Positions 10,643 through 38,017 are shown, numbered from the stretch's first letter. The stretch: 64,000 nt of DNA from Candidatus Levybacteria bacterium CG2_30_37_29 (GCA_001873215.1 MNYS01000002.1:28395-92394), one strand, 5' to 3'. The notes: generated from the sequence alone by a model not told the origin. Numbers and translations are program-made.

Positions 10643-10981
10643 TTATCTAAGTGTAGCCCCGGGTTTAACTTTTGTTGCAGGTTTAATAAGAGCCGGTTTG
10701 TCAGTGTTTGTTGCAAGTATCATAGCGTGACTTTCAAGTCCCATCATTTTTCGCGGTTCAAGATTTGTTGCAAAAATGAAAGATTTTCCAATTAAATCTT
10801 TTGGGCTGTACCATTTTGCAATTCCCGACAAAACCTGCCTGCCGGCAGGCAGGCCTACCTCGTTTTCTTCTCCAAAATCAACTTGAAGTTTTAGCAATTT
10901 TTCAGAATCTTTAATTGGTTCAGCAGATAGAATTTTCCCAACTTTTAATTCGACTTTTGCGAAATCATCAAAATTTATCAC
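10643..10981 (-). CDS. tRNA-binding protein (CsaA/Trbp111/EMAP-like OB-fold domain)
   Basis: DFAKVELKVGKI...DFGEE...RQVLSGIA...GKSFIFATNL matches the tRNA-binding-domain family. Contains the 20-nt palindrome encoding LPAGRQ. Confidence 0.8.
   Translation of the reverse strand: MINFDDFAKVELKVGKILSAEPIKDSEKLLKLQVDFGEENEVGLPAGRQVLSGIAKWYSPKDLIGKSFIFATNLEPRKMMGLESHAMILATNTDKPALIKPATKVKPGATLR
10834..10853. repeat. Perfect 20-nt palindrome CCTGCCTGCCGGCAGGCAGG, in frame inside the tRNA-binding protein gene (encodes LPAGRQ)
   Basis: Read directly from the sequence. A GC-rich island within an AT-rich CDS. Identical to the copy at 13138-13157. Confidence 0.9.
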
Positions 10982-11032
10982 TTTTTAATTATATCACCAA
11001 TTTTTAACTTTAAACTTTACACTTTTAACTAT

Positions 11033-12559
11033 TTATTCCCACTCCATAGTCGCGGGGGGTTTTGTGGTTATATCATAAACGACGCGGGAAATTCCCGGGA
11101 CTTCATTTACGATTCTTGAGGAAATTACTTGTAGTAGGTCATATTCCAATCGCGACCACGTTGTTGTCATAATGTCCTTTGACTCAATAATTCGAAGTGC
11201 AACAACTTCACCAAAAAATCTTCCATCTCCTTTTACAGCTGTTGAGTGTGCATCAGTCATTACAGGAAAAGAAATAAAAACTTTAGGAAGCCATCCTGCC
11301 TTTTCCAGTTCTTTAATTACGATCTTATCTGCTTGTCTCTCTTTTGATAAACGATCAGCTGTTACTTCTCCTCTAATTCGAATCGCGTATCCAGGACCGG
11401 GAAAGGGTTGTTTCATAACAATATTTTCAGGTAAACCAATTTTTCTCCCCAATACTCTAACTTCATCTTTATATAATTCTCGAAGCGGTTCCAATAGTTG
11501 TAGTTTCATTTCCTTGGGAAGTCCACCTACATTGTGATGGCTTTTAATCTTGCTTGCGTGTTTTGTTCCTTTTGATTCGATTACGTCAGAGTAAATAGTT
11601 CCTTGAAGCAAGAATTTTACAGCTTGATTTTTTAAAACAAGACGTTTCATTTCGCGTTCGAATACTTCAACATAAAAATTTCCAATAGCCTTTCTCTTTT
11701 TCTCACTATCTGTAATACCCTTTAGCTTTCTTAGCATTTCGGGTTCAACATGAACAACTACAGGTTTAATTCTCAGAGGCTTGAAAGCTGTTGTGACTGT
11801 AAGTTCTGCGTCATCCCTCATAAGACCGTTATTAACAAAAACCGGTATAAATTGCTTTCCGATAGCTTTTGCAACAAGTGTTCCGGCAACTGTCGAATCT
11901 ACCCCGCCAGAAACAGCACCGATAACGTATGCATTACCGACTTTTTGTTTAATATCTTGAATTATTGTTTTGGGATCTATCGTATGATTAATTTTTTTAA
12001 TACCGCAGATACTAATAAAATTATCAAGAATTTGGTTTCCAAACTCCGTATGTTCGACTTCGGGATGGAATTGGACTCCGTACTTCTTATTTTTCTCATC
12101 TGTGACAAATGCATAGCGTACATTTTCACTTGATCCGACAATGGTAAAGTTTTTAGGAATAGAAAGAACCGAATCTCCGTGGCTCATCCATACAGTAAGT
12201 GTTTTGGGTAGACCCTTGGTAATCTTTGAATCCTGTTTGACCAGCTTTATTTTAACCGGACCATATTCTTTAGTTCCCGGTTTTACTTTACCGCCCAAAA
12301 GGTGAGATCTAAGCTGAAGCCCGTAGCAAATATCAAGCATCGGTATATTAAGAGAAAAAACCTTTTTATCAATCGTTGGTGAATTTTTTTCATAAACCGA
12401 TGCAGGTCCTCCTGAAAATATCAGTCCTTGTGGTTTTACTTTTTCAATTTCTGACAATGCGTTTTCAGGTTCTATAAGATGCGTTGAAACTCCAAGATCG
12501 CGTAGGCGACGGGATATAAGGTGTGCTGTTTGTCCGCCAAAATCAACAATTATAATCAT
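11033..12559 (-). CDS. guaA: GMP synthase (glutamine-hydrolysing)
   Basis: N-terminal class I glutamine amidotransferase (IIIVDFGGQ, catalytic ICYGLQL). ATP-PPase SGGVDS motif. C-terminal dimerisation domain. 508 aa. Confidence 0.9.
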   Translation of the reverse strand: MIIIVDFGGQTAHLISRRLRDLGVSTHLIEPENALSEIEKVKPQGLIFSGGPASVYEKNSPTIDKKVFSLNIPMLDICYGLQLRSHLLGGKVKPGTKEYGPVKIKLVKQDSKITKGLPKTLTVWMSHGDSVLSIPKNFTIVGSSENVRYAFVTDEKNKKYGVQFHPEVEHTEFGNQILDNFISICGIKKINHTIDPKTIIQDIKQKVGNAYVIGAVSGGVDSTVAGTLVAKAIGKQFIPVFVNNGLMRDDAELTVTTAFKPLRIKPVVVHVEPEMLRKLKGITDSEKKRKAIGNFYVEVFEREMKRLVLKNQAVKFLLQGTIYSDVIESKGTKHASKIKSHHNVGGLPKEMKLQLLEPLRELYKDEVRVLGRKIGLPENIVMKQPFPGPGYAIRIRGEVTADRLSKERQADKIVIKELEKAGWLPKVFISFPVMTDAHSTAVKGDGRFFGEVVALRIIESKDIMTTTWSRLEYDLLQVISSRIVNEVPGISRVVYDITTKPPATMEWE

Positions 12560-12607
12560 GTTAAATATATTTACTAAAGATACTCGTTGCGCTCGTTTTT
12601 TGCTTCG

Positions 12608-13786
12608 CTACAAATAGTTTTTCCCCGGCTCAGTAACAAAAATATCGTGGGGATGACTTTCTTGAAGGGAAGATTGAGTAATTTGGATAAATTTTGCTTT
12701 TTCCCAAAGATCAAGAATTGTTTTTGCCCCCACATAATACATTCCGGATTTAATTCCCCCAATTGCTTGTTCAACGAGTTCTGTAACCGTTCCTTTCACA
12801 GGAACTAGCCCTTCAACCCCTTCTGCAACAAGAACTCTATCAGAGTAGCTTTTTCCGTGAAATTCTCCCTCAGATTTTATTTTTGCGCCTCGCTCCATAG
12901 CACCGATTGATCCCATTCCACGATACTCTTTGAACATGTATGTTTTGTGTTTTCTAAAAATACTTTTAAAACGAGAAGGGACCTGCGATTCGGAAAACCG
13001 TGTAGTTTTGCCGGGAGATTCTTCACATGTAGCAAAAAAGGATCCCATCATAACGGTTGACGCTCCAACAGCAAGTGCTTTTACAATGTCTCCAGAATAC
13101 TGAATTCCACCGTCCGCAATTACAGGAATATTTGTCTCCTGCCTGCCGGCAGGCAGGTTTCGTGCCGCGCGCACAACTTCAGTAATAGCAGTAATTTGAG
13201 GTACTCCAATTCCCGAAATTACTCGAGTGGTACAAATTGCACCCGGCCCCATACCGACGCGTAGGCAATCCGCTCCTGCACGAATTAGAGCGGAAGCTCC
13301 TTCATGCGTTGCAACACTTCCGCAAATTACATCTATTTTAAAATTGTTCTTTATGGAAGTTAGTGTTTCAATAACGCTTTTTGAAAACCCGTGTGCTGAA
13401 TCTATAACAATTACATCAACGCCTGCTTTCATCAGGGTTTCAACACGTTTTTCAAATCCGTTATTGGCTCCAATTGCCGCACCGACAAGCAATGTTTGGC
13501 CTGTCGAAGTATCTTTTTTTACTTTTCTCACTTCATTTGCTTGTTTTTCTATTGGTAAATTTCGGTGAATTATTCCAATTCCTCCAAGTTTTCCAAGAGC
13601 AATTGCAAGCTTTGATTCGGTAACCGTATCCATGGGAGAAGAAATAAATGGGATAGAAAGAGAAATATTCTTTGTAAGTTTTGTTGAAAGGTCAATTTTT
13701 TCGCGGGGAAAGTCAGTGTAATTTGGAAGAAGAAGAATGTCGTTAAAAGTAAGGCCTACTAAGAAATCTTTTTTTTGGAGTACCAT
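12608..13786 (-). CDS. guaB: IMP dehydrogenase, CBS (Bateman) domain-less form
   Basis: [12 protein letters not shown]-terminus, catalytic GIGVPQITA and [23 protein letters not shown], active-site Cys loop [10 protein letters not shown]. 392 aa: the roughly 110-aa CBS pair is missing between EVRKVKK and LLVGAAIG. Contains the 20-nt palindrome encoding LPAGRQ. Confidence 0.85.
13138..13157. repeat. Perfect 20-nt palindrome CCTGCCTGCCGGCAGGCAGG, in frame inside guaB (encodes LPAGRQ)
   Basis: Read directly from the sequence. Lies in the loop just N-terminal to IPVIADGG, where this protein has about 4-6 more residues than E. coli GuaB. Confidence 0.9.
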
Positions 13787-17887: not shown

Positions 17888-18144
17888 TATACTAATAGTT
17901 AGTAACAAGACCGAAAGATAATCAACTATAGAAGTACCACTCGGAGTAACATTTTTCAAAAAAGTAGAGCTTTACCAAAAAATCGAGCTCTCTGAGGGAA
18001 TTATAGGGATAAATAGGCATCTCGGTCAGAAGCTATAGGTTATTTGGCTGGCACTGGTTGAGGATTTCAGAACTGCAAACTGGACTGAAATCATCAAATA
18101 TCCAGAGCTAGTATATCAAAAATCAGAAGGATATCTTCAGCTAT

Positions 18145-18747
18145 TTAACTGATAAGTTTCTTTTTCTTTGCTTCTTCAATAATTTGTTTCATCATTGTAT
18201 TTACATCTATTAGATATGTTTCAACATTTTCTTTTATGAAAATATCTTTTTTTAACTTAGCGGAAGGTAATTCCCATTTGTTATTTATATAGTCTACATA
18301 TAAATGTCTCCACTTTAATTTTTCTGTTTCTCCTTCCTCAATCTCCTTAATGCTTTTTAGAATTTCTTTTATTGAATTATTTATATCCTCAATAGTTCTC
18401 CCTTCTAAGAATTTAGGATTATTTTTCTTTATATCTTCAAAGTTTTCTCTTAAAAGATTTTGTCCTACGAGCATCATTTTAATCAAACCAGTTTGCTTAA
18501 ATTTATGGTCTCTAAATGTCTTCCAAAATTCTTGCCAATCAACTGTTTTATTCTCTATGAGGTTTATTGCAACAAGCCCTAGATAATATGCTTTTGATAG
18601 CTCTTCAATAGCTATTGCATATAGAAAAGTTGCAGTTGGAGATTTTGCTTTTTCTAATAAGTTACCATCGTCTTTTATTTTATGTGCGTTATATAGCATT
18701 TTATCCATTCCCACTATACATTGAGTAATATCAAGATTTGTTTTCAT
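18145..18747 (-). CDS. AbiV-like abortive-infection family protein (putative)
   Basis: 200 aa, all-helical. The AIAIEELSKAYYLG segment resembles the conserved A.EE.GK core of the AbiV family. Size matches AbiV (about 200 aa). Moderate confidence. Confidence 0.45.
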   Translation of the reverse strand: MKTNLDITQCIVGMDKMLYNAHKIKDDGNLLEKAKSPTATFLYAIAIEELSKAYYLGLVAINLIENKTVDWQEFWKTFRDHKFKQTGLIKMMLVGQNLLRENFEDIKKNNPKFLEGRTIEDINNSIKEILKSIKEIEEGETEKLKWRHLYVDYINNKWELPSAKLKKDIFIKENVETYLIDVNTMMKQIIEEAKKKKLIS

Positions 18748-18814
18748 AAGTTATATTTTCTTATAATCTTTCTAAAGTTAAAAAGCAATCATTCTTAAAT
18801 GCTACAATAATGAT

Positions 18815-19207
18815 ATGACGAAACTCACTCCTGATGAGAGGTGGAAAAGATTTAATCAGAAACTAAATGAGCAAATGAAAGCTAATGATTTCTACAGTTT
18901 AGGTATTACTTATCAAGAGATGGCTAACTTCTTAGATAAAGAAGGGAAAAATTCAGAAGAAATGCGAAATAAAGCTTACGAAATGAAACTTTTGCATCAC
19001 CAAAACTATATTAAAAACCTACAGAATAATTCTCCGGTAAGTAAAGGTGTTGAGATACTTTCAGCACCTGATAGTTGTGAAAGTTGCTTAGCTTTAGATA
19101 GTAAGGCATTTGAGTTTAAGAAGGTTTTAGATAGTCCACCACTCCCCGTAAAAGAGTGCAAGCATATTTACGGGTGTAGATGCACATATCTTCCTGTAGC
19201 AAATTAA
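18815..19207 (+). CDS. Hypothetical Cys-rich protein; C-terminal GCRCTY motif reminiscent of the phage Mu-F/SPP1 gp7 head-morphogenesis domain
   Basis: CESC...C..YGCRCTYLP cysteine cluster. Similarity to the MuF H.NCRC motif is by pattern only. Confidence 0.35.
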   Translation: MTKLTPDERWKRFNQKLNEQMKANDFYSLGITYQEMANFLDKEGKNSEEMRNKAYEMKLLHHQNYIKNLQNNSPVSKGVEILSAPDSCESCLALDSKAFEFKKVLDSPPLPVKECKHIYGCRCTYLPVAN

Positions 19208-19902
19208 GTTTTTTCTACAATTTTAATTTCAAATTCAGGAGTTAAGAGAACTTGTTTTCCAGTATGTTCATATTCAAATTTATCAGCCCTTCCTCTATAG
19301 GGATGTATAAAACTATGCTGTTCTTTAGTTGAAAGAACTTCATCATAATCTAAATCTATCGCAAGCGTATTCGGATAAAGCTGTATTATTCTCCATGTTT
19401 TAGCATCTGGCGTTACATCACCTAAATACCATATGTCCTTAACTTTAGGATTTATCTCTTTTAGTTTTTGGTTTAATTCAACGGCGGGTGGAACTACTTG
19501 GTTTCTCCTTATGTAACAGACAAGGGTAAGGTTAGGGTCAACAATTTTGTTAAGTTTTATTTTCTTTAATGCTTCTAAAAAATCTCCTTCATTATCTTCT
19601 TTTCTGTATTCAAATACTTCAAGTTTAATTTCAGGTCTTTCGCTTCCCCCTATTTTTTTGTTGTGAATAAAAGTATAGCAATAGAAATCCGGTGAACCTG
19701 ATTTTATTTCTGGCTTGAAAAACCATTCCTCTCCCGAATGGTTTTTAAGTCCGAGCAAAAACATTGCTGTTATCCAAGCTTCCCTTGTTACTTTATATTT
19801 TCTATCTGTAAAGATTGTATCTCCAATACTCAAATAGGTTCTTGCAAATAAGCGGATTGCAGTATAAGGATGTATAAGTATTTCTTCGCTTGAATTTTTC
19901 AT
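19204..19902 (-). CDS. Hypothetical protein (232 aa), weak PD-(D/E)xK-like pattern
   Basis: GSPDFYCYTF ... EIKLEVFEYRK could be a degenerate PD...ExK nuclease core. Unverified. Last gene of the minus-strand operon. Confidence 0.4.
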   Translation of the reverse strand: MKNSSEEILIHPYTAIRLFARTYLSIGDTIFTDRKYKVTREAWITAMFLLGLKNHSGEEWFFKPEIKSGSPDFYCYTFIHNKKIGGSERPEIKLEVFEYRKEDNEGDFLEALKKIKLNKIVDPNLTLVCYIRRNQVVPPAVELNQKLKEINPKVKDIWYLGDVTPDAKTWRIIQLYPNTLAIDLDYDEVLSTKEQHSFIHPYRGRADKFEYEHTGKQVLLTPEFEIKIVEKT

Positions 19903-19933
19903 ATTGCGGCTATTTTATTATAAGGAAGAAAAT

Positions 19934-20848
19934 TTAACGAGTGGCAAGTTTTTTTAATCCTCGCTTCTGAACAAAGAGAAGTAGAAGCATCCTATTCAAA
20001 TTGGCAATATTAGCCATATCTTCTAATAGTTTTGTTTCATTCTTTACTCCACCCAAAAATCCACCTTCCCATTCTCCGCCAGCGAGTAGTCCATCATGAA
20101 GAAAGTTAGACCTTAAATTATGATAAAGTTTTTTTGTCATTTTCACGGCAGTATCAACATTTGAACCGGTAATAAGGCTTCTTATTAGCTTTTCTATTTC
20201 ACTTGCATGACTTGTTTCATGCTTTTTATTTATCTTTTCCCCACAATCAGGACATACTAAAAAAGATGAACAAATTGGTTTAGGATTATCTGCTAATTGG
20301 TTTATAGAAGACAACAAGAGTGTCATATAAAGAGTATATTTCAGATGTGGATTTGGTAATCTTTGGATATCCTCTGCCCACACAAATGTTTGCAAAGCTT
20401 TTTCAAATCTCATGAGTTCATCAGCATTGAGCTTTTGCAAGAGCTTACAGAAAAAGAATAATTTACCGACAGGATTAAGTTCATTTACTATTCCACCATA
20501 GCTTATGCCTTTTTCATAGAATGTTTGAGCTTTATATTTTTTGAATACATCTTCAAAACCATTCAGTCCAACAATATCTTGCGGTGCTGTATCTGAAGGC
20601 AAACCTGTAGTTAGAAGCAGGAGATTGCTAATTCTATAAAGATTTCTATACATGTTTGAAGAAGTAAGAGGCTTTATTGTTTCTAAATATAGAAAGGTTT
20701 TTTGTTTATCAAAAGCCCTTTTGTTATCTGGATTTCCTGCAAATAATATTGCACTTTTTATGTCAGAGTGAGGTAAAGCTACCAACTCATAATAAGGTTG
20801 TTCATTATTGTAAATATTAAGATGATATAAAAATAAGTATCTGGACAT
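19934..20848 (-). CDS. Hypothetical protein (about 304 aa) with CPDCGEK zinc-ribbon-like motif
   Basis: Start moved to Met32 to remove the overlap with the upstream nuclease gene. No family recognised. Confidence 0.4.
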   Translation of the reverse strand: MSRYLFLYHLNIYNNEQPYYELVALPHSDIKSAILFAGNPDNKRAFDKQKTFLYLETIKPLTSSNMYRNLYRISNLLLLTTGLPSDTAPQDIVGLNGFEDVFKKYKAQTFYEKGISYGGIVNELNPVGKLFFFCKLLQKLNADELMRFEKALQTFVWAEDIQRLPNPHLKYTLYMTLLLSSINQLADNPKPICSSFLVCPDCGEKINKKHETSHASEIEKLIRSLITGSNVDTAVKMTKKLYHNLRSNFLHDGLLAGGEWEGGFLGGVKNETKLLEDMANIANLNRMLLLLFVQKRGLKKLATR

Positions 20849-20907
20849 TAGGGCTATAGCATATTTACGATGTATTATATTACAAATGAGGCTAAGATAT
20901 AATCGCT

Positions 20908-21882
20908 TTATTGCTGACAATGCAATGGAGCACCATCGCAAGCTATACCGTCTCCATCAGCATCTCTAACAGAGCACCCACATGTATTTAATTGGTATTG
21001 TGCTTCTGCACATGAAGAAATTTGGGTGCATGTTTTACTGCAGTTACAGGAATAACCACCTGTATTTTGTTGATATGTGTTATTTGTTGCAGGCGTTTGA
21101 GAGGTAGACTGACTTGCCGGCTTGGGGGTTGTTGAAGAACATGCACTCCATAACCCTTTGTTATTTGTTCTTGCTTGTTGCTCTGCTTGTCGTAATTTGT
21201 CTTGATATTTTATATCTGGCGGATAAGAAACTGCATGAGCGTATCCTTCGCTTACCAGAACTTGATTGATAAAAAGGTCTCCCATATACACATAACGCAA
21301 TAGCCTTCCATATCTGTCAGTTTCAGAAATATCCTTCTCAAGCCCTACAATACCATTTCCAACGAGTTCTTGGTTCTTTGCTGATGCTTCTTTACCATAA
21401 CATTGAACTGATTTTCTTGGGTCAACAGTTTCAGGGGTATCAATTCCTATATATCTAACGGTTTTCTTGTTGCCATTTCCTAAATCTACCTCAATGGTAT
21501 CTCCGTCAATTATTCTTATTACCCGAGCAAGCACTATATTTGCATTTGCCGGTGCAGTTTGTGGTTTCCATGTTGGAGTGGGAGAAGTATCTGATATAGA
21601 AGGCTTAGTAGCTTGAGATTGATTAAAATCTACCTTTTCTTCTTGTTTTTGTGCTTGCTTAGGAGTAGTTGAAGATAAACCTGCCACCCATGCACTGCCT
21701 ATAAAAAGTGTCAATAAGGCAATAAGAGCAATTACTCCATATTTTGCCTTCTTATTTCCTATCTTCTTATACGCAAAATAACCCGCACCAATTCCAATTA
21801 CAAAAGGAAGGAATGGTAGAGCGAGAATACCTATAGCAGGAACTGTGAGAAATTTTCTTTTACCTATAAATAATTTCTTCAT
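20908..21882 (-). CDS. Membrane-anchored thermonuclease (staphylococcal nuclease/SNase fold) with C-terminal Excalibur Ca-binding domain
   Basis: N-terminal TM helices. SNase motifs ARVIRIIDGDTIEV...VRYIGIDTPE...RYGRLLRYVY. Low-complexity T/S/P/Q linkers. C-terminal Cys-rich DADGDGIACD, the Excalibur DxDxDGxxCE signature. Confidence 0.8.
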   Translation of the reverse strand: MKKLFIGKRKFLTVPAIGILALPFLPFVIGIGAGYFAYKKIGNKKAKYGVIALIALLTLFIGSAWVAGLSSTTPKQAQKQEEKVDFNQSQATKPSISDTSPTPTWKPQTAPANANIVLARVIRIIDGDTIEVDLGNGNKKTVRYIGIDTPETVDPRKSVQCYGKEASAKNQELVGNGIVGLEKDISETDRYGRLLRYVYMGDLFINQVLVSEGYAHAVSYPPDIKYQDKLRQAEQQARTNNKGLWSACSSTTPKPASQSTSQTPATNNTYQQNTGGYSCNCSKTCTQISSCAEAQYQLNTCGCSVRDADGDGIACDGAPLHCQQ

Positions 21883-21928
21883 GCTTGGGAAGTATTATAC
21901 TACTAACAATGCGGATGTTTAATTTGTT

Positions 21929-22636
21929 TTATAACGAATTGCTAGGTTTAGTTCCCAGAAATACTAAACTAAAACCATTTTTCACATATACACAACCTAC
22001 ATTAAAATCACCGAGAATAATTTCTTTAGTTCCATCTTTCTTATCTCGAAGAAACTCAATAGCTCTGTCTGCTGTCTTGGTAATCACCCATAACTCTGTC
22101 ATTGGAGCATATTGGTTTAGTCCTGCATTTTCTACCCATTGGTCAAAACTTTCTTGCTGATTATTTGGGTCTTTTTTCAAGATTTGATATCTGCTCTCTA
22201 ACTTATTACAGATTGATGGCTCTAAAATAATAGGTTCCACATCATGTTTTTTCCTATACTCGTTTAATTTTCCAAATACTTCATTACTTGTAAATTCCCA
22301 TTCTTTGGGGGCTGTAGAGCTTACTGGATATTGTTGTTTGAATTGAACGGCATTTACAAAAATGTAAATTCCAAAAAGTAGAAAAATTGCAAATATAATT
22401 TTTGAAGCTATGCTTTTTATGCTAAATTTCTTTGAAAGAATAGGTTTTGCAAGGAAAAAAAAGATAATTACAGATAAAATGAGAACCGAAAATTTATCAA
22501 GCACATATCCTCCGCTTGTAAACTGTTGAGCTTCTACGCTTCTATCAAGAGTATTGTAAGTAAAAAGAAGCCAAACATATAGAGCACCTACAAAAGCTAG
22601 AATTCTTAATACCGGTTTTATTATTTTTCTAAACAT
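21929..22636 (-). CDS. Hypothetical membrane protein (3 TM helices + soluble C-terminal domain)
   Basis: Hydropathy read from the translation. Operonic with the nuclease gene. Confidence 0.45.
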   Translation of the reverse strand: MFRKIIKPVLRILAFVGALYVWLLFTYNTLDRSVEAQQFTSGGYVLDKFSVLILSVIIFFFLAKPILSKKFSIKSIASKIIFAIFLLFGIYIFVNAVQFKQQYPVSSTAPKEWEFTSNEVFGKLNEYRKKHDVEPIILEPSICNKLESRYQILKKDPNNQQESFDQWVENAGLNQYAPMTELWVITKTADRAIEFLRDKKDGTKEIILGDFNVGCVYVKNGFSLVFLGTKPSNSL

Positions 22637-22640
22637 TTTA

Positions 22641-22949
22641 CTATAGTTTTCTTATCCATTCGTATAATAACCCAAAGGGTATAATTGATATATCCTCTAT
22701 TTTACTTCTAAAAATTATCATTATGACCCAAGATAAAATTACAATTTTCCAATCAAAGAAAAAGAAAATTATAGTTGAGACAATAAATGCAATCATTACT
22801 AGAACAAATAGCAACTGAATAATCAAGGAGTTGAGCAGGAGAGGTCTTTCAAAAGCATGTGTCTTGCCATATCTTCCATAATATGAAGTGCAACCGGAAA
22901 AGAATAAATACATTACACTTAGTGCTATAAATTCTATATTCATACTCAT
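22641..22949 (-). CDS. Hypothetical small membrane protein (102 aa)
   Basis: Three hydrophobic segments. First gene of the minus-strand operon, divergent from the XRE regulator. Confidence 0.4.
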   Translation of the reverse strand: MSMNIEFIALSVMYLFFSGCTSYYGRYGKTHAFERPLLLNSLIIQLLFVLVMIAFIVSTIIFFFFDWKIVILSWVIMIIFRSKIEDISIIPFGLLYEWIRKL

Positions 22950-23054
22950 CTAATGTATTTAAATTATAGCTTATCTTAATCAATTTACAAGGCGAGTATT
23001 AAGGTTAAAAGGGCTATATAAAGACAATTTGAATGTTTAGGTTAATGGAAAATA

Positions 23055-23081
23055 GCAGTATATGGCTTATTATTATACTGC
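23055..23081. promoter_or_regulatory. Inverted repeat GCAGTATA-N11-TATACTGC spanning the start codon of the XRE regulator (candidate autoregulatory operator)
   Basis: Perfect 8-bp arms read directly. Lies in the divergent intergenic region between the HTH gene and the 5-gene minus-strand operon. Confidence 0.4.
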
Positions 23082-23286
23082 TAAAATTAGAGAGGAGATT
23101 GGCAAAAATATACAAAGGTCTAGAAAAAGAAAAGGATTGAAACAGGTTGATGTAGCTGTAGATGCGGGAATAAACACAAGCTATTATGGGAAAATAGAAA
23201 GGGGAATTGTCAACCCTTCTCTTGAAAAACTTTTTAGAATAATTAAATCTCTAAAAGTTAAATCCTCTGATATACTCCCTTTTTAG
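23062..23286 (+). CDS. XRE-family helix-turn-helix transcriptional regulator
   Basis: 74 aa. LKQVDVAVDAGINTSYYGKIERG is a classic Cro/C1-type HTH. Confidence 0.7.
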   Translation: MAYYYTAKIREEIGKNIQRSRKRKGLKQVDVAVDAGINTSYYGKIERGIVNPSLEKLFRIIKSLKVKSSDILPF

Positions 23287-23351
23287 TGGGAAAGTGTGAG
23301 TAAATACTCTGTATATCCCTATATGAATAAGGTGTTTACAGTAGGGAGCGT

Positions 23352-23777
23352 CTAGCTACGCCCCAACGTTTGTAGAAGCATTTCTTCTAGATGACCCTTT
23401 ACCTGCTCCACAAAGGCATGAAGGTTCTGATAGTCCTTCCAAACAATCCTTTTGACACCCTTTGCTTCTAGCTCTTGGTTATAAGGGGGTATAGAGGATA
23501 TGCCTATTATTTTATTAGGCGGGTATTTATTAAAGTCTAAGACATGAAAGCTTCCTGATGCAAAGCAATCACGGTCAAGAAGTATTATGTCAAATACATT
23601 CCTTGATACTTTATTTAGGTATTCTTCTACCTGCGTATATTCAGAAAGAACTGTAATTGCTATGGATAATCTATCCTCAAAGTGTTTTTGAAGCTTATAC
23701 AGGCATTGTAGAAGCAGAGAAAGGGTTTCCACATCGTCCTCCAACAGGAGTATTCGTATGTCTTTTAGCCTACCCAT
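23352..23777 (-). CDS. Standalone response-regulator receiver (CheY-like) domain protein
   Basis: IRILLLEDD acidic pocket, phospho-acceptor DIILLDRD, and GISS / K-like downstream residues. No output domain. 141 aa. Confidence 0.6.
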   Translation of the reverse strand: MGRLKDIRILLLEDDVETLSLLLQCLYKLQKHFEDRLSIAITVLSEYTQVEEYLNKVSRNVFDIILLDRDCFASGSFHVLDFNKYPPNKIIGISSIPPYNQELEAKGVKRIVWKDYQNLHAFVEQVKGHLEEMLLQTLGRS

Positions 23778-23928
23778 CTTATCTAAAATATAGCTTACCT
23801 TTACTTATTAAACAAGGTAGGATGGGGGGCTGGACACAAACCCTATTTGATTTATGACAAGAATATAATAAATAGTGGCGAGCATTGGCGTGTAAAAAAT
23901 ATAGGCTAAATGGTAAAATAGAGCTAAT

Positions 23929-24606
23929 GTGAATATGAATGACAATAGTTTATTTTTAGGTTTATCTCCTCATGCGGATGCTGTTAAAAGTTTAAGCAAT
24001 GAGAATTTAGAATTACTTGATAAGACTGTTCGGGAAATTTTGCGGAAAAACGAACTATCAGCTTTTCAGGAAATAACATTTGATGCCGACCCAAATACAA
24101 AAGAAACAGTGGATTATCTCAATAGGCATATTCTTCATAAAAATATCAATACAAATTCGGAGCGGATAATTTTAGACCTTTCAGAAGAAGATATAGAAGC
24201 CTTGTATAGGTGTAGTCAAGCAATAAAGGATGAGAAAGAAAAGAGGCAGATAATAAGCCCATTAAATAATGCAGGCGTAGATAAAATAAAAATCCCTGCT
24301 GGATGGACGCTAGAAGAAGATGAAAAAGGTAGGGCTTTCCTTAACAGGAATGGAAAAGTTATGTTTGAATTCAAGCATAATTGGACAAATAAGTATAAAT
24401 ACTTTAAGGTAATGTGGGAAAATTATGGTCAAAAGGTTGATTATAAAATTGTCTACGAGTTTCGTTCAAAGCTAATCTACCCGGAAAAGGGTGTATCCAA
24501 ATTCAATAGTAACATGCGAAACACCATAAATAAATTAAGAAAAGAAATGAAACATTTACCTATTAAAATTAAAACATCAAAGGGTTTTCAACTCCTTATA
24601 AGATAA
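23929..24606 (+). CDS. Hypothetical protein (225 aa)
   Basis: No family recognised. Lies within the mobile element. Confidence 0.4.
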   Translation: MNMNDNSLFLGLSPHADAVKSLSNENLELLDKTVREILRKNELSAFQEITFDADPNTKETVDYLNRHILHKNINTNSERIILDLSEEDIEALYRCSQAIKDEKEKRQIISPLNNAGVDKIKIPAGWTLEEDEKGRAFLNRNGKVMFEFKHNWTNKYKYFKVMWENYGQKVDYKIVYEFRSKLIYPEKGVSKFNSNMRNTINKLRKEMKHLPIKIKTSKGFQLLIR

Positions 24607-24683
24607 ACTACCCCCGAAAAGCTCTTAAAAGCTCTATTTCGCTCTAATAGACAGGCTCTAATTGTGCCCTTTATATTAAGCTC

Positions 24684-24929
24684 ATGATTATAAATGATAA
24701 TAAAAATCATTTCCAAACTTCAGATTTAGCATTAGCTTCTTTTCTGTCCCTTACCTACCCTATTGAAAAGATAGATAAATCAAACCCCAAACGGGCAGAA
24801 TTTGTCTTTAAGAACCCTGAAGAACTACATAATCTGATTGATACCTATTGGCAAGGTAAGGCAAGAGTTGAACCACAAGTATTCTTCAATCAATTAAAAA
24901 TTGTAAAAGCTCGTTTATATGGAGAATAA
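24684..24929 (+). CDS. DUF5659 domain protein
   Basis: TSDLALASFLSL...PKRAEFVFKNPEEL..LIDTYWQGKARVEPQVFFNQLKIVKARLY matches the DUF5659 pattern (TSDL.LASFL...P.R.VFVFE...EL....FW.G.ARV.P..FF.AL...K.RIY), common in phage/plasmid contexts. Confidence 0.55.
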   Translation: MIINDNKNHFQTSDLALASFLSLTYPIEKIDKSNPKRAEFVFKNPEELHNLIDTYWQGKARVEPQVFFNQLKIVKARLYGE

Positions 24930-24933
24930 ATTT

Positions 24934-25080
24934 ATGTTGAGTAAGCCTTTATTAGAAGAACTAAGACAAATAATGAAAAGAAAGTATAGTTTGGAGCTTA
25001 ACGATAAAGAGCTTTTTGAGTTTGCCAACTCACTTGTAGGCTATTTTGACTTACTCTTGAAAGGAAGTCTAAGAAAATAA
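24934..25080 (+). CDS. Small hypothetical ORF (48 aa, MLSKPLLEELRQIMKRKYSLELNDKELFEF...)
   Basis: ATG ORF below the track cutoff that tightly fills the gap between DUF5659 and the next gene. Helical. Confidence 0.3.
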   Translation: MLSKPLLEELRQIMKRKYSLELNDKELFEFANSLVGYFDLLLKGSLRK

Positions 25081-25082
25081 GT

Positions 25083-25814
25083 ATGGCAAAAGCACGAATG
25101 CTACATAAAAAGATTTCTGTTTCAACACAGGTAAATAAACTTTACTTACCCGCAAGGCTTCTTTTTACATGGATGATTGCACACGCAGATGATGAAGGTA
25201 GGTTGAAAGGAGATGCAGATTACATAAGGGCGATTGTTGTCCCAATGACAAAGTGGTCTTTCAAAAAGATAGGAAATTATCTTGAAGAAATAAAAAACGC
25301 AGGACTTATTTATTACTGGCAACAAAATGGTGAGTGGTTTGTAGAATTTATAAAATGGCGAGAGCATCAAAGCATAAGAAGTGATAGATATATTTCTTCA
25401 TTGCTACCCTCATTTATGAAAGGGACTGATGACAAATTGGCTACCAATAGTCAACCGGATGACAACCAAAAGCCTACTCAAGATAATATAGTTCAATCCA
25501 AAATAAAACAAGAGAATTTTAATAAAAGCGAATATAAGGAAGACGCCGATAAAACATCTAAAGTCATAAACCCTAGAACCTTTACACCAAGCAATGATGG
25601 AGAGAGTATTGCCTTAGAAACATATAAGCGGTTAGAACCGAATAACCCATTTGCATTTCAAGCTACCTATCTAAAGGCTCTAAAAAGAGGTTTGCCTCTA
25701 CATTTGTTCGGTGAATTCGCTAGTCAAATAGAACAAGATAACTCTGTTAAAAATCGGGGTGCAGTGTTTAATATAAAAGTTGATGAATACTTTGAAAACA
25801 GAGTTCGGAAATAG
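25083..25814 (+). CDS. Hypothetical protein; N-terminal region resembles phage replication-initiator/replisome-organiser winged-helix domains (tentative)
   Basis: LPARLLFTWMIAHADDEGRL...YLEEIKNAGLIYYW pattern. Low-complexity acidic/polar middle. Function inferred weakly. Confidence 0.35.
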   Translation: MAKARMLHKKISVSTQVNKLYLPARLLFTWMIAHADDEGRLKGDADYIRAIVVPMTKWSFKKIGNYLEEIKNAGLIYYWQQNGEWFVEFIKWREHQSIRSDRYISSLLPSFMKGTDDKLATNSQPDDNQKPTQDNIVQSKIKQENFNKSEYKEDADKTSKVINPRTFTPSNDGESIALETYKRLEPNNPFAFQATYLKALKRGLPLHLFGEFASQIEQDNSVKNRGAVFNIKVDEYFENRVRK

Positions 25815-25863
25815 TCCTATGAGCCTTATTGCAAAACAAAATAAAAGAGGGATAATTAAGAAA

Positions 25864-27408
25864 ATGAGAATGAAAATAGTATCATTTGCCAGAGTTTCTA
25901 CAAGAGAGCAGGCAGAGGAAGGCTACTCTTTGCCTGCCCAAGAGAAACTACTCAACGAGTATTCTTTCCGACATAGCGATTGGGTAAATATCAAACACTT
26001 TGCAGTTCCTGAAAGTGCATCCGGAAAGCAAGAGAGGAAAGTGTTTAACATACTTTTGGATTACCTAGATACACATAAAGATATTAAAGTTCTTCTTTGT
26101 GAAAAAGTTGATAGAATTTCTAGAAATTTTAAGGATGCGGTTAGGCTTGACGAATGGTTAAATGAAGACGAAGAAAGACAAATACATTTTGTTAAACAAA
26201 ATCTAGTAATACATAAAAACTCCCGTTCCCACGAAAAATTCCAATGGGATATGTATATTGCTCTTGCAAGGCAATATAGCAACAACCTTTCAGAAGAAAC
26301 AAAAAAAGGTCTTTATGAGAAAGCAGAGCAAGGTTGGTTTCCGGGCAATCACAAGAGGGGGTATAAGTGTATTGGAGATAGAGGACATAAAATATGGGAG
26401 ATAGACCAAGAAAAACCAGACGCAAAGTATATTGAGATGGGATTTGTCTTATTCAACACAGGTAACTTTACATTACGAACACTTGCAGTTGAGCTATTTA
26501 AGCAAGGATGGAGTGTTAAAACTAAACCTATTTCAATAAGTGAGCTTCACAAACTTTTAACTGACCCCTTCTATTGCGGTGAGTTTATTTTTAGAGGGAA
26601 GCATTATAAGAATGGTAAGCATCAGCCTTTAGTTTCCCAAGAACTCTTTTATAGCGTTCAAGAGCGTTTGCAACGCAAAGTAAAAGCAGGTAAATACAGA
26701 AAGCATCATTTTCTTTTTGGTGGTGGTTTAGCTACCTGTGGCGAATGTGAAAGAACAATTACATGGGAGCTTCAAAAAGGACACCATTATGGGCGTTGCA
26801 CGAAACACAAGACAAGCTGTTCCCAAAAAGCATATACAAGAGAAGAAGATGTCCAAGGACAAGTTCTTACATACCTAGATAAATTAAGAATTGATGACCC
26901 TGAATTACTTGAATGGGTTAGGAAAGCCTTAAAAGAAGCACACAGGGCAGGAAGCGAATATCATGAAGATATTGTTAAAGAACTTGATACACAATATCTT
27001 AGGGTCAAGAATAGGTTGGATGTTCTCTATGATGATAGAGCTGATGGTCTGATTTCAAAAGACCAATACGAATATAAAAAAGGTCAATACGAAAAGCAAC
27101 TAAACGACATTGTAGAGGCAAAGCAAAAACACTGCAAGGCAAATATAGACTACATGAGATTAGGAATAAACATTTTTGAACTTGCACAAAGGGGGCGTGA
27201 AATCTACGAAAAGAAACTCTTAATGGAAGAAAAGAAGGAGCTACTCAACTTTGTATTTTTGAACCTTAAAATCAGGGATAAAAAGGTCATTCCTAGCTTC
27301 AAAAATGGGTTTGAAGTGGTGGCAAAGCGGGCAGAAGATGGGAATTGGCTGGGAGTCAGGGATTCGAACCCCAATAAACAGGTCCAGAACCTGTTGTCCT
27401 ACCATTAG
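25864..27408 (+). CDS. Large serine recombinase (resolvase/invertase catalytic domain + recombinase domain + zinc ribbon)
   Basis: MRMKIVSFARVSTREQ catalytic Ser motif, DRISRN, and a Cys cluster CGECERTITW...GRCTKHKTSC. AGAGGG RBS upstream. The ORF 3' end runs into the tRNA-Gln sequence, so the true stop/att overlap is uncertain. Confidence 0.8.
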   Translation: MRMKIVSFARVSTREQAEEGYSLPAQEKLLNEYSFRHSDWVNIKHFAVPESASGKQERKVFNILLDYLDTHKDIKVLLCEKVDRISRNFKDAVRLDEWLNEDEERQIHFVKQNLVIHKNSRSHEKFQWDMYIALARQYSNNLSEETKKGLYEKAEQGWFPGNHKRGYKCIGDRGHKIWEIDQEKPDAKYIEMGFVLFNTGNFTLRTLAVELFKQGWSVKTKPISISELHKLLTDPFYCGEFIFRGKHYKNGKHQPLVSQELFYSVQERLQRKVKAGKYRKHHFLFGGGLATCGECERTITWELQKGHHYGRCTKHKTSCSQKAYTREEDVQGQVLTYLDKLRIDDPELLEWVRKALKEAHRAGSEYHEDIVKELDTQYLRVKNRLDVLYDDRADGLISKDQYEYKKGQYEKQLNDIVEAKQKHCKANIDYMRLGINIFELAQRGREIYEKKLLMEEKKELLNFVFLNLKIRDKKVIPSFKNGFEVVAKRAEDGNWLGVRDSNPNKQVQNLLSYH

Positions 27409-27419
27409 ACGAACTCCCA
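27346..27419 (-). tRNA. tRNA-Gln (anticodon CTG)
   Basis: Manually folded cloverleaf: acceptor TGGGAGT/ACTCCCA, D-stem GTCT/GGAC, anticodon stem ACAGG/CCTGT with loop TTCTGGA, T-loop TTCGAAT, discriminator G, and an encoded CCA. Confidence 0.8.
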
Positions 27420-34929: not shown

Positions 34930-34955
34930 ACTAGGACTAAAAAACAATACTCAAC

Positions 34956-35550: not shown

Positions 35551-36624
35551 ATGAATATACGAGAACGAGCTGAGGTAGAGCTTGGTATACAAAATGTTGA
35601 CGCATTTACAGCCTCCTTTGGATCTAAATGTCCTGATGCAATGCAAGCATTGCCAAAAGAAGAATTTGAACCTGCCCAAGCTGCCTTTACTGAAGCCTTT
35701 GAAGATGCCGCAGGACTGACACAAATCGATCCAAGCAAGTTTTTTATAGCTAGAGTTAAAGACAGGGTGGTTAGACGCGAATATTATAGACCTACGCCTC
35801 AGGATGAAGATTCATTTAGGTTTGCGCCTCAGGCATTATGTGAGGTAGGAATTATCAAGGGAAGATTTGGGGTGAACATTGAATGGAGGCACGATGCAAA
35901 TTTCAGACGAGATTCACTAACAGTTTTCCCCTTTGATGACGAAATGAAACTTAGATTAAAACCCGGAGAAGAGCTATCTGTTGACTGGAAACAAGGGCTA
36001 GTCTCGAGTATTGAGCTAAAAACACACAAAGTAGAAAATGGTAAACCCCAATTACACAATGCGTTTGCCACACTCAACATGTTTGGTGATGCGCAAAACA
36101 AAGGGAATGTAAACTATTGGAAAAGCAACTGGGAAAGGAGATTTCAAAGAGTAATCGACCTAGATTATTTAAGGGCAAATCCCAGGACAAGGGATGAAAT
36201 GGATAAGTCTATGGAAATAATGGCTAGAACAGACACGGGGTTAGGAGATTATCCATATACACCGATAAACTTATTGCATCTAGAAAGAAATTTAGACGAT
36301 GGAGAGATAACGATAAATCAAATAAATGTTAATTCTGAAGATGCTAACTCAGAAACAGGAATCACTATTGAAAGATTTGATTCTCCAGAACGAGAAGAAC
36401 TTTTAGATAGTATTTTTATTCCAGAACCTTTCAATCCCCTAGCTTTAATCGCAACAATATTTCAAAGAAACATGTTGAATCAACCTGAAAACTCTCCATT
36501 GGCTTATGATAGAGAATGGCTAAATCAACATTCAATTGTAAGAGAATTAATTGAGTTGAAGTGGATTCGCCACGATATTGACCCGCTCAGGAAATTTTCA
36601 CAAACTAGTTCTGATAGTCTGTAA
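35551..36624 (+). CDS. Hypothetical protein (357 aa), compositionally more GC-rich than its neighbours
   Basis: Long ORF with good coding look. Acidic. No recognisable motifs. Confidence 0.5.
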   Translation: MNIRERAEVELGIQNVDAFTASFGSKCPDAMQALPKEEFEPAQAAFTEAFEDAAGLTQIDPSKFFIARVKDRVVRREYYRPTPQDEDSFRFAPQALCEVGIIKGRFGVNIEWRHDANFRRDSLTVFPFDDEMKLRLKPGEELSVDWKQGLVSSIELKTHKVENGKPQLHNAFATLNMFGDAQNKGNVNYWKSNWERRFQRVIDLDYLRANPRTRDEMDKSMEIMARTDTGLGDYPYTPINLLHLERNLDDGEITINQINVNSEDANSETGITIERFDSPEREELLDSIFIPEPFNPLALIATIFQRNMLNQPENSPLAYDREWLNQHSIVRELIELKWIRHDIDPLRKFSQTSSDSL

Positions 36625-36747
36625 CCCGTGTTAATTGTTTGAACCAGAAATGAGGCTAAAGATTTTTATACAAGAAATACTAGACAATAACTCTTCAAAA
36701 AATCTGAGCTTAGCGGTTCGAACACCTTGCCTAGGTGCTCCCTTCGG

Positions 36748-36820
36748 TGACCCCACAGGAATTCGAATCCTGGTTCCCAGAATGAGAATCTGGTGTCCTA
36801 GGCCACTAGACGATGGGGCC
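36748..36820 (-). tRNA. tRNA-Glu (anticodon CTC), no encoded CCA
   Basis: Manual fold: acceptor GGCCCCA/TGGGGTC (one G-U pair), D-stem GTCT/GGAC, anticodon stem CCAGA/TCTGG with loop TTCTCAT, T-arm CAGGA-TTCGAAT-TCCTG, discriminator A. Confidence 0.75.
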
Positions 36821-37057
36821 ATTAATTAATTTTTCAATTACCTTCTTACTTTTCAACGATTTAAGATAATATTCTCTTTTTTTAGCTTCAGAATTAGTAT
36901 TATATTCTTCTTTGTATGATAGTTCAAACGGTCCCTTATTTTTAGTATATCGCGAACGGTTCGAATTATGTTCTGCAATTCTTCTTTCTAAATTATTTGT
37001 ACTGCCAATATAAAACATTCCGTTTTTTATACTTCTTAGAATATATAAGAAATACAT
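36806..37057 (-). CDS. Small GIY-YIG nuclease (URI domain only; COG2827/YhbQ-like)
   Basis: MYFLYILRSIKNGMFYIGSTNNLERRIAEHN is a canonical GIY-YIG core. 83 aa. The last 5 codons (NGPIV) and the stop are made from the first 15 nt of the tRNA-Glu gene. Confidence 0.75.
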   Translation of the reverse strand: MYFLYILRSIKNGMFYIGSTNNLERRIAEHNSNRSRYTKNKGPFELSYKEEYNTNSEAKKREYYLKSLKSKKVIEKLINGPIV

Positions 37058-37059
37058 AT

Positions 37060-37138
37060 TGGTGTCCTAGGTCACTAGCCTCGATGATCGCAGTCATCGG
37101 GATCCCGAATGAAAACTATCATCGGGAACGATGGGGCC
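37060..37138 (-). pseudogene. Duplicated 5' fragment of tRNA-Glu (positions 1-30) interrupted by a 49-nt structured insertion
   Basis: GGCCCCATCGT [TCCCGATGATAGTTTTCATTCGGGATCCCGATGACTGCGATCATCGAGG] CTAGTGACCTAGGACACCA compares with the intact tRNA GGCCCCATCGTCTAGTGGCCTAGGACACCA. One substitution. The insertion contains two hairpins. The GIY-YIG start codon follows 2 nt later. Confidence 0.65.
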
Positions 37139-37228
37139 AAGTAGCCCCTTATTTTACTAGAAATAGGTTAAATTCACAAGAAAAATATAGAGTGGAGTTT
37201 ATTTTTTCTTCTATGTATAATAAAAGTT

Positions 37229-38017
37229 ATGAAAAAGACAAACTTGGACAATTTCTTGCTTTCCGTTGTTATCCCCTCATATAACGAAATGGGGAATCTT
37301 CAAAAGGGAACTCTTGATAAAGTAGAGCATTATCTTGAGAAAAATAAGTTTAATTACGAAGTTTTGGTAGTCGATGACGGATCAACCGATGGAAGTCTTG
37401 AATTTGTCAAAAAGTTTTCCCGCGAAAATCCCAAATTTAAAGTCGTAGAAAACAACCATACGGGGAAAGCAGGAGCTGTAACAGCGGGGGTTTTGAAAGC
37501 TGCAGGAGATTATATACTTTTTACGGATATGGATCAGGCAACACCGATTGAGGAAATTGAAAAGATTTTGCCGTTTACAAAGGCCATGCCTGCCGGCAGG
37601 CAGGAATTCGATATTGTTATCGGCTCGCGAAATAACACAAGGCGCGGCGCGCCATTCTCAAGAAAATTAATGGCCAAAGGGATGATTGTTCTACGTTCTC
37701 TTCTCGTCGGTTTTCCGGAAATTAAGGATACGCAGTGCGGATTTAAGCTTTTTACAAAAAAATCCGCCCGAGAAATTTTTGAGAAAATGTTAAATTTGCA
37801 CGGAGGATTTAAGTCTATAAAGAATTCAAGTGTTACGGCAGGATTTGATGTAGAACTTTTGTATATCGGCACACGACTTGGGTATAAAATTAAAGAAGTC
37901 CCGGTAGAGTGGTTATATGTTGAGACAAGAAGAGTGAATCCGATAAAGGATTCGTTGGACGGCTTTTTAGATCTTGTAAGAATCCGTGGAAGAATTTTAA
38001 AAGGACGGTATGGGTAG
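37229..38017 (+). CDS. GT2 glycosyltransferase (polyprenyl-phosphate sugar synthase, DPM/DPG-synthase-like)
   Basis: VVIPSYNE...VLVVDDGSTDGS, DMD and DIVIGSR motifs. Contains the third palindrome copy (MPAGRQ). Confidence 0.8.
   Translation: MKKTNLDNFLLSVVIPSYNEMGNLQKGTLDKVEHYLEKNKFNYEVLVVDDGSTDGSLEFVKKFSRENPKFKVVENNHTGKAGAVTAGVLKAAGDYILFTDMDQATPIEEIEKILPFTKAMPAGRQEFDIVIGSRNNTRRGAPFSRKLMAKGMIVLRSLLVGFPEIKDTQCGFKLFTKKSAREIFEKMLNLHGGFKSIKNSSVTAGFDVELLYIGTRLGYKIKEVPVEWLYVETRRVNPIKDSLDGFLDLVRIRGRILKGRYG
37585..37604. repeat. Third copy (18/20) of the GC-rich palindrome, in frame inside the GT2 gene (encodes MPAGRQ)
   Basis: CATGCCTGCCGGCAGGCAGG, with the perfect palindromic core TGCCTGCCGGCAGGCA. 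Same reading frame relative to the palindrome as the other two copies. Confidence 0.85.

Follow-up and report, generated by a model that had tools for sequence, protein, structure and literature searches.

We analysed 64,000 nucleotides of DNA (hereafter the window) from Candidatus Levybacteria bacterium CG2_30_37_29 (GCA_001873215.1 MNYS01000002.1:28395-92394), in which a 20-nt, G+C-rich palindrome interrupts three genes in the same reading frame. We consider it probable that all three represent solo copies of a hairpin repeat that is the cognate element of a family of tRNA-linked, single-domain GIY-YIG nucleases, and the 20-mer itself probably ranks among the smallest mobile DNA elements known. 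Its sites are filled in some genomes and empty in close relatives, the conserved unit is exactly 20 nt, identical copies occur across bacterial phyla, and the palindrome is associated with a small GIY-YIG gene that lies between a partial and an intact copy of one tRNA. Nuclease and repeat together form an apparently undescribed and widespread variant of the GIY-YIG/hairpin-repeat systems.

The Palindrome Has Inserted Into Three Protein-Coding Genes

A pattern search of the window located CCTGCCTGCCGGCAGGCAGG exactly at positions 10834-10853 and 13138-13157, and a third copy, CATGCCTGCCGGCAGGCAGG (CATGCC...), at 37585-37604. No match to the 20-mer was expected in the window, as judged from 100 dinucleotide-preserving shuffles. 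The window has about 35% G+C, and the 20-mers are its strongest G+C-rich palindromes. As single-stranded DNA (ssDNA) the 20-mer forms a hairpin whose 8-bp stem is closed by a CCGG loop. Read directly from the sequence, its six frames contain zero stop codons and, the 20-mer being its own reverse complement, the (L/M)PAGRQ frame is identical on both strands. The first copy lies in a tRNA_bind open reading frame (ORF; CsaA/MetG-C-like, 10643-10981, minus strand, PF01588, 112 aa) and is read GLPAGRQ. The second lies in the IMPDH/GuaB ORF (IMP dehydrogenase, 12608-13786, minus strand, 392 aa), where it is read NLPAGRQE immediately before the IPVIADGG motif, while the third is read AMPAGRQ in a family-2 glycosyltransferase (GT2) ORF (37229-38017, plus strand, PF00535, 262 aa). 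Pattern search and ORF reading thus confirmed a preliminary description of this DNA as regards the three sites, the (L/M)PAGRQ reading and the lack of stops in six frames. The GT2 copy, given there as an 18/20 match, in fact matches CCTGCCTGCCGGCAGGCAGG at 19 of 20 positions, with a single mismatch.

Because close orthologues of all three genes have empty alleles, the 20-mers are insertions. In guaB, the two closest orthologues (P0002/L169 and P0003/L170, 94% and 92% identical, respectively) are seven residues shorter exactly at the palindrome. The empty site reads GCGGC-AAAAAAAA-CAAAT (A8) and the filled site GCGGC-ACGAAA-(20-mer)-AGA-CAAAT, a net gain of 21 nt (+7 aa), i.e., 20+1 nt. Judging from these alignments, the guaB insertion is recent. 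The palindrome of the tRNA_bind gene is missing from orthologue P0122/L256 (93% amino acid identity in the alignment), in which AAC-CCAAGACAA-GTT (ENP-RQ-V) stands in place of AAC-GAGGTAGG-(20-mer)-TT. The net gain here is 18 nt (+6 aa), and the conserved Arg-Gln is now encoded by the palindrome. The 20-mer is unchanged at this same tRNA_bind site in L170, from a related species in which the flanking codons have visibly diverged. In the GT2 gene, an 88%-identical orthologue (P0242/L257) has 18 nt fewer at the palindrome site, and a 73%-identical one (P0249/L258) holds a more decayed copy, CCATGCCTGCCGGTAAGCAGG, at the same site and with the same C-to-A change. Additional residues at the palindrome position are also seen in comparison with DPMS 5mlz.

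The view that the copies sit in tolerant protein loops is upheld by these close orthologues, which lack the 20-mer in all three genes. The inserts had further been taken to be 18 nt long, which describes the net gain in tRNA_bind and GT2 but neither the gain of 21 nt in guaB nor the unit itself, which is 20 nt; coding copies therefore need an adjustment of +1 or -2 nt to keep the frame. On this evidence, the element is gained, is able to persist for a long time and amounts, within genes, to 20 nt with bases gained or lost so as to restore the frame. A GuaB protein identical throughout, LPAGRQ included, was found indexed in 68 blocks of independent assemblies (JGI, NCBI GCA_002793055.1, ENA).

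The Palindrome Is Tightly Associated With a tRNA-Linked GIY-YIG Gene

In loci selected by the 20-mer, five GIY-YIG domains begin 39-60 nt downstream of a copy and others lie within a few kb. In order to avoid circularity, we also selected 80 metagenome loci solely by GIY-YIG protein similarity, using a four-sequence alignment as the query. The exact 20-mer was present in 38 of these 80 loci. Of the 76 loci with at least 100 nt of upstream sequence, 58 carry the palindrome no more than 160 nt ahead of the ORF, allowing for up to four errors, and in 31 the match is exact. Loci without an exact 20-mer mostly have decayed or internally interrupted versions in the same place. As a negative control, more distant GIY-YIG genes in viral contigs (26-42% identity) were inspected, and the 20-mer was found in none of 18. 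The association of the palindrome with one GIY-YIG/tRNA nuclease subfamily is therefore tight. A co-occurring nuclease, which the preliminary description had thought worth looking for and had itself missed, was thus found in the form of this tRNA-linked, single-domain GIY-YIG gene.

The resulting cassette has a fixed order, namely a partial 5' tRNA copy with the palindrome in its D-loop, the small GIY-YIG ORF and then the same tRNA in intact form. The ORF runs in the direction of this tRNA, which it adjoins, and begins in the anticodon-arm region of the partial copy. A tRNA lies directly downstream of the GIY-YIG gene in 55 of the 76 loci (57/80 overall), and at least nine tRNA identities are represented (Leu, Arg, Lys, Phe, Gly, Asn, Met, Thr and Ser). 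GIY-YIG proteins linked to the same tRNA group together, in that nearest neighbours share their tRNA identity in 45 of 58 cases against 16.6 expected. The palindrome interrupts the partial tRNA at position 20-24 in 24 of 38 mapped cassettes, at 14-15 in eight and at 9-10 in three, almost always after an A. In more than 25 cassettes the partial and intact tRNAs differ by exactly the 20-mer, with neither duplication nor loss at the junction, so that wherever the intact tRNA serves as an internal empty-site comparator (more than 25 junctions), the insertion is free of target duplication. In about one in ten cassettes a second copy of the palindrome lies just downstream of the ORF or of its tRNA. 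The interrupted tRNA copies go unreported by tRNA finders, and deletion of the 20-mer in silico restored an ARAGORN call in one case only, because most hosts are partial tRNA copies.

The window itself contains one such cassette (36746-37138), which lies 530 nt from the GT2 copy and has the same architecture as the 20-mer cassettes. All of its parts lie on the minus strand. It opens with a 5' fragment of tRNA-Glu (37058..37138, about positions 1-30), which stands directly upstream of the start codon of a single-domain GIY-YIG nuclease ORF of 83 aa (36806..37057; PF01541, E = 1.8e-20). The stop codon of this ORF lies inside an intact tRNA-Glu(CTC) identified by ARAGORN (36746..36820), which starts within the last codons of the ORF. 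The D-arm of the partial copy is broken at 37079-37127 by a 49-nt insert that forms a double hairpin, so that it reads GGCCCCATCGT(49 nt)CTAGTGaCCTAGGACACCA-at-ATG versus GGCCCCATCGTCTAGTGGCCTAGGACACCAGA in the intact gene. No further copy of the TCCCGA/TCGGGA hairpins of this insert was found within the window. The window's GIY-YIG protein is 32-43% identical to the products of tRNA-linked GIY-YIG genes that bear the 20-mer, and a comparison with viral contigs yielded no useful relatives of it.

The cassette GIY-YIG proteins are 77-83 aa long and comprise the catalytic domain only, PF01541 being the sole domain found. The Tyr/Gly of the second motif is invariant in eight aligned sequences, as are one Arg, one His and one Glu; on the basis of the fold, we take these residues to be the catalytic set. 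The closest solved relatives are the UPF0213 proteins BH0048 and EF2693 (1zg2 and 1ywl; E = 1e-14 and 2e-13), followed by SLX1, and B. subtilis yazA (46% identical) is amongst the best matches in a plasmid collection. The score against TIGR01453, an intron-type endonuclease family, was 28.5, below the cut-off of 56. These matches point to membership of the UPF0213/SLX1-like branch, rather than demonstrably of cd10448.

The Same 20-mer Occurs Across Bacterial Phyla and in Viral Contigs

In a scan of GTDB with one genome per species, the exact 20-mer was detected with unrelated flanks in at least 120 species genomes from many phyla. The carriers include many Patescibacteria classes and, among the matches listed, cultured Bacteroidota (Winogradskyella, Flagellimonas, Longitalea, Flavivirga, Aquiflexum, Agriterribacter and Aestuariivivens). 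Omnitrophota, Planctomycetota, Verrucomicrobia, Bdellovibrionales, Thermodesulfovibrionales (Nitrospirota), Chloroflexi, Elusimicrobia, Ignavibacteria, and gamma- and delta-proteobacterial metagenome-assembled genomes are also represented, and some carrier records are labelled as complete chromosomes. A scan of viral contigs with the inner 16-mer matched 44 stretches ranging from 38% to 69% G+C; about four in five of the copies are the complete 20-mer with unrelated flanks, and some contigs have 3-6 copies. Conservation ends abruptly at 20 nt, the sole flank bias being at -1 (A 41%, T 9%), mirrored at +1.

In the GTDB sample, restricted to genomes below 50% G+C, 86 of 98 classifiable copies lie outside long ORFs. 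The LPAGRQ frame is used by seven of the 12 copies within long ORFs, the seven whose ORFs are longest, and also by all three copies in the window. Insertions in coding sequence are thus selected against, the survivors favouring a frame free of cysteine. The idea of a miniature in-frame palindromic element, put forward in the preliminary description, therefore stands in so far as the element is repeated and LPAGRQ is the favoured frame, but not as a rule of insertion, since most copies lie outside long ORFs. Its restriction to one lineage or to the candidate phyla radiation (CPR), as a small counterpart of the Rickettsia palindromic elements (RPEs), is contradicted by the presence of the same exact 20-mer in many phyla and in viral contigs. 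Two other origins suggested at the time fare no better, as a restriction-related site leaves the exact 20-nt conservation unexplained and a transposon excision footprint would consist of local sequence, which would not be identical from one phylum to the next.

Variants of the 20-mer show one-sided decay from a single master sequence, with compensatory pairs almost absent. This pattern fits sequence-specific recognition rather than recognition of a generic hairpin, and rules out structural selection on the stem. The 20-mer is found at the tips of hairpins with stems of at least 7 in 7.0% of cases versus 1.9% of random positions, the latter including coding DNA; this enrichment is real but too modest for hairpin-tip targeting to be the main rule of insertion. 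Copies can also be nested, with one 20-mer in the centre of another (L066 and L090). On a viral contig (L047, IMGVR_UViG_3300025106_000007), positions 3916-4142 hold at least 10 tandem units, each of 21 nt, in an array that runs up to the contig end; its unit, CCATGCCTACCGGCAGGCAGG, is a palindrome variant plus one base, and four more copies are scattered on the same contig.

Several further features were noted around these copies. Many intergenic copies are flanked on both sides by genome-specific tandem repeats of 7-8 nt, e.g., AATTACG x4, TCTAAAA x3 and GGTGAGA xN (L149 1815, L130 346, L098 3400, L106 1870, L016 8396, L005 10596/11254, L035 3452), sometimes with the inverse repeat further on. 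Target-site duplication by repeated insertion was ruled out as their source, as sites with empty comparators show no duplication. In two viral contigs (L033 2239-2330 and L007 8616) the 20-mer lies in the variable loop of an initiator-like tRNA-Met gene. ARAGORN still calls the L033 gene (92 nt), which may thus encode a working tRNA whose extra arm derives from the palindrome. The 20-mer loci also have further short, perfect and G+C-rich palindromes in recurrent copies, sometimes at most 30 nt from the 20-mer, namely TCCGCCAGCTGGCGGA in three CPR genomes (L063 2857, L064 160, L080 966), TCCCGATAGCTATCGGGA in two Bacteroidota (L100 1631, L110 317) and CCTTGTCCGCCGCGGCGGACAAGG three times in one viral contig (L029 3000/8909/10512); these may be sister repeat families. 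In a search against Rfam, only tRNAs passed the gathering threshold (16 loci).

A Model Based on Hairpin-Guided Nucleases

The nearest parallel is SsnA of Neisseria meningitidis, a single-domain GIY-YIG protein of 94 aa that binds the NTS/SRM hairpin as ssDNA only and cuts a few bases upstream of it (Chenal et al., Nat Commun 2025, PMC11893778). The hairpin is recognized by its sequence and not by structure alone, and ssnA is typically flanked by its repeat, a layout whose likeness to that of an insertion sequence (IS) was remarked on by the authors (PMC11893778). The tRNA-linked family shares with the Ssn proteins a single GIY-YIG domain of about 80-95 aa (here 77-83 aa) without an extra DNA-binding domain. 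It also shares a nuclease gene flanked by its own inverted-repeat hairpin of 20-50 nt (here upstream in 58 of 76 loci, and in several also downstream), the second copy downstream in about one in ten cassettes giving the same IS-like layout. In both systems the hairpin is dispersed as many solo copies that are mainly intergenic, and sequence-specific recognition, known for SsnA, is predicted for the 20-mer. There are also clear differences. The 20-mer is a perfect palindrome without oriented flanks, and it falls outside the SRM consensus HGTCWYN(0-2)YYVSBRHN(0-5)WNVSBRGN(0-2)RNCYNB, no instance of which was found within 200 nt of the GIY-YIG gene in any of the 80 loci. In addition, a tRNA duplication encloses the gene and carries the hairpin in the D-loop of its partial copy, the 20-mer is invariant across phyla, and it has in-frame copies in conserved genes, whereas only 2% of NTS copies are reported to be intragenic (PMC11893778).

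True SRM/NTS-like hairpins were also seen elsewhere in some genomes that carry the 20-mer (L149, L222 and L115). In Candidatus Shapirobacteria PEWA01000028 (L149 481-1420), three NTS-like SRM hairpins, CGTCATTCCCGCG...GCGGGAAC, lie about 400 nt from the 20-mer and contribute, in frame, the N-terminal S-R-F/L-R/H-G-N-D of three successive pilin-like ORFs, such that a second hairpin-repeat family also enters coding sequence in CPR genomes.

By analogy with SsnA, we infer that the nuclease binds and cuts the hairpin and moves the 20-mer. The cassette would be the autonomous unit, and solo palindromes would be dispersed elsewhere in the same kinds of genomes. The nuclease most likely recognizes the folded palindrome in ssDNA and nicks it at the base of the hairpin, as in the Ssn/NTS pair, which would set the sharp 20-nt boundaries. 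Repair or re-ligation of cuts at other exposed single-stranded sites would then spread the 20-mer, each addition being of exactly 20 nt, without target-site duplication, preferably behind an A and with some excess over random positions in hairpin loops or next to them. Insertions into genes would mostly be purged, leaving those in surface loops where the frame is regained by +1 or -2 nt and the copy is read in the least harmful frame, LPAGRQ.

Several points weigh against this model. As far as sequences can tell, the link between nuclease and palindrome is one of association, and over 95% of the copies in the loci selected by the 20-mer do not adjoin a GIY-YIG gene. The one GIY-YIG cassette in the window holds the 49-nt hairpin insert and not the 20-mer, and copies are enriched only modestly at hairpin tips. 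Being hydrolytic, GIY-YIG enzymes are themselves unable to rejoin DNA, which leaves the integration step without a known agent. The identity of the 20-mer across phyla could, moreover, reflect frequent horizontal transfer of the cassette and not local transposition. In the boldest form of the model, the 20-mer would be a micro-transposon that moves freely and is smaller than any mobile DNA so far; a hydrolytic, single-domain, UPF0213/SLX1-like GIY-YIG enzyme would excise and insert it as a 20-nt single-stranded hairpin, with host ligation or repair, across more than 10 bacterial phyla and their phages. On this form we would give a tentative and rather doubtful verdict. If true, it would mean a new transposition chemistry and would add to the site-specific ssDNA nucleases a second, independent family, one whose site is a defined palindrome of 20 nt.

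Alternative Explanations

A serious alternative, unlikely though we consider it, is that the cassette is a homing endonuclease element that targets tRNA genes. The 20-mer would then be a built-in disruption or regulatory insert in the spare tRNA, where it breaks the target site, disrupts the direct repeat by which the ORF could be lost or stabilizes the mRNA 5' end, and the solo copies would be by-products of repair, in which a short stretch is copied from the cassette at off-target breaks and the palindrome forces template switching at its ends. The D-loop position fixed across at least nine tRNA identities, the grouping of the proteins by tRNA identity as in homing lineages, and the ORF co-oriented with and abutting its tRNA all agree with homing. 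There is also a hint of microhomology at the tRNA_bind site, where the insertion overlaps a native AGACAAG resembling the palindrome end AGGCAGG, and T4 SegB is a GIY-YIG homing enzyme whose gene lies in a tRNA cluster (PMC2330249). However, the cassette protein is a catalytic domain alone, without the DNA-binding domain used by homing GIY-YIG enzymes, and the intact downstream tRNA keeps an unbroken D-loop, such that the insert confers no obvious immunity. The solo sites do not resemble the D-loop apart from the A at -1, and solo copies far outnumber cassettes and include nested copies and tandem arrays. It is also possible, but in our judgement quite unlikely, that the 20-mer is an independent selfish hairpin moved in trans by another enzyme, such as a Y1 transposase like those of repetitive extragenic palindromic (REP) elements and their REP-associated tyrosine transposases (RAYTs), or another ssDNA recombinase, with the spare tRNA copy serving as a safe landing site. 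The hairpin form, the mild preference for unpaired loops and the lack of target duplication are typical of ssDNA transposition of the IS200/IS605 and REP types, and the copies nested in the centres of other copies fit as well. Yet 76% occupancy of one leader position in one gene family, with none in distant GIY-YIG genes, far exceeds passive landing, and no conserved flanking tetranucleotide comparable to the GTAG of REPs is present. No recurring transposase was noticed near the 20-mer copies, although no systematic search for one was made.

Very improbable, in our view, is the remaining idea that the 20-mer is either a functional motif under selection, as a hexapeptide or a regulator site, or an assembly or adapter artefact. 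The shared frame in three proteins might suggest the former, and identity across very different assemblies a reagent sequence. Nevertheless, close orthologues work without the 20-mer, and most copies lie outside long ORFs. An artefact, which the preliminary description had wished to see excluded, is ruled out by the recurrence of the filled site in 68 assembly blocks and in a diverged sister species, by carriers that include cultured isolates and complete-chromosome records, and by intact reading frames, which a 20-nt artefact would break. The cognate repeat of a tRNA-linked GIY-YIG nuclease thus remains our preferred explanation for the 20-mer.

Comparison With Other Repeats and Significance

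Amongst other repeats, the 20-mer resembles the REP/BIME-RAYT systems (BIMEs being bacterial interspersed mosaic elements) in being a short, G+C-rich, extragenic palindrome present in many copies, with a repeat-flanked partner gene, no target-site duplication and a logic based on ssDNA hairpins. REPs, in contrast, are imperfect, species-specific and preceded by a 5' GTAG, whereas the 20-mer is perfect and has random flanks but for the A at -1; RAYTs are HUH/Y1 transposases with covalent intermediates, whereas the partner here is a hydrolytic GIY-YIG protein and the repeat is invariant across phyla. RPEs are likewise selfish palindromes that lie in frame within ORFs and leave the protein intact, as is seen here in three ORFs of the window and seven long ORFs elsewhere. 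They are, however, about 100-150 bp long, confined to Rickettsia and its relatives and without a known partner gene, while the present element is 20 nt long, occurs in many phyla mostly outside long ORFs and has a partner nuclease. Miniature inverted-repeat transposable elements, which derive from DDE transposons, differ in having terminal inverted repeats together with a target-site duplication; no such duplication was seen for the 20-mer, either at the cassette junctions or in guaB. The GC clusters of yeast and other fungal mitochondria are similar as G+C-rich palindromes in an A+T-rich genome that are optional between strains and occasionally in frame (var1), but they are organellar, 30-50 bp long, fall into several sequence classes, often have short target duplications and have no established nuclease partner. 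T4 SegB is similar in that a GIY-YIG gene among tRNA genes is inherited as a selfish cassette (PMC2330249). Homing enzymes of the Seg/I-TevI type join the nuclease domain to a sequence-specific DNA-binding domain, whereas the present proteins are a catalytic domain only. In Seg enzymes the DNA-binding domain is C-terminal; they cut double-stranded DNA and are not known to have a hairpin repeat or a partial tRNA duplication.

No occurrence of the 20-mer, its shorter cores or LPAGRQ was found in the literature searched, and searches on palindromic in-frame elements, CPR palindromes and UPF0213/YhbQ returned no description of the element or the cassette. A paper on group I introns in Patescibacteria tRNA genes is silent on palindromes and GIY-YIG.

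If the model is correct, the large group of tRNA-linked, single-domain GIY-YIG proteins would acquire its first concrete cognate sequence and a candidate activity, and the discovery of hairpin-guided ssDNA nucleases in 2025 would be extended to another hairpin and probably to another branch of the superfamily. Tools that act on ssDNA are sought, and a perfect palindromic site of 20 nt would be convenient. A 20-nt mobile unit that is identical across phyla bears on how such a unit is copied and on how it, or its cassette, crosses between lineages. The element is also worth recognizing for those who annotate genomes or model protein structures from CPR bacteria, Bacteroidota and others, as it adds loops of the LPAGRQ type to conserved proteins such as GuaB and as contigs can end in its tandem arrays (L047).

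Genomic Surroundings of the Window's Copies

In the window, a GMP synthase of 508 aa (11033-12559) lies between guaB and the tRNA_bind gene, while the sister species L170 (8699-8826) has no guaA at this place. Comparison of window positions of about 36600-37200 with L173 (ENA ERZ27293412 k141_9387) revealed a strain-level rearrangement with a breakpoint about 80 nt upstream of the GT2 start; in L173, a NUDIX gene and a different tRNA precede the palindrome-bearing GT2 gene in place of the tRNA-Glu/GIY-YIG cassette. From the GT2 gene onward (37229-64000), the window contains a long run of co-directional genes of membrane glycosyltransferase type (MptA_B-family, PMT_2, PTPS_related and YfhO), several of which are repeated.

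Within 25780-27419, a large serine recombinase with Resolvase and Recombinase domains ends beside a tRNA-Gln gene (27346-27419, minus strand). The region upstream of it contains many small ORFs without a Pfam match, a helix-turn-helix protein, DUF5659 and SNase, and the stretch as a whole (18000-27000) looks like an integrated element. The GT2 orthologue in L257 likewise has a serine recombinase immediately upstream, and that in L258 has one a few kb away on the same side.

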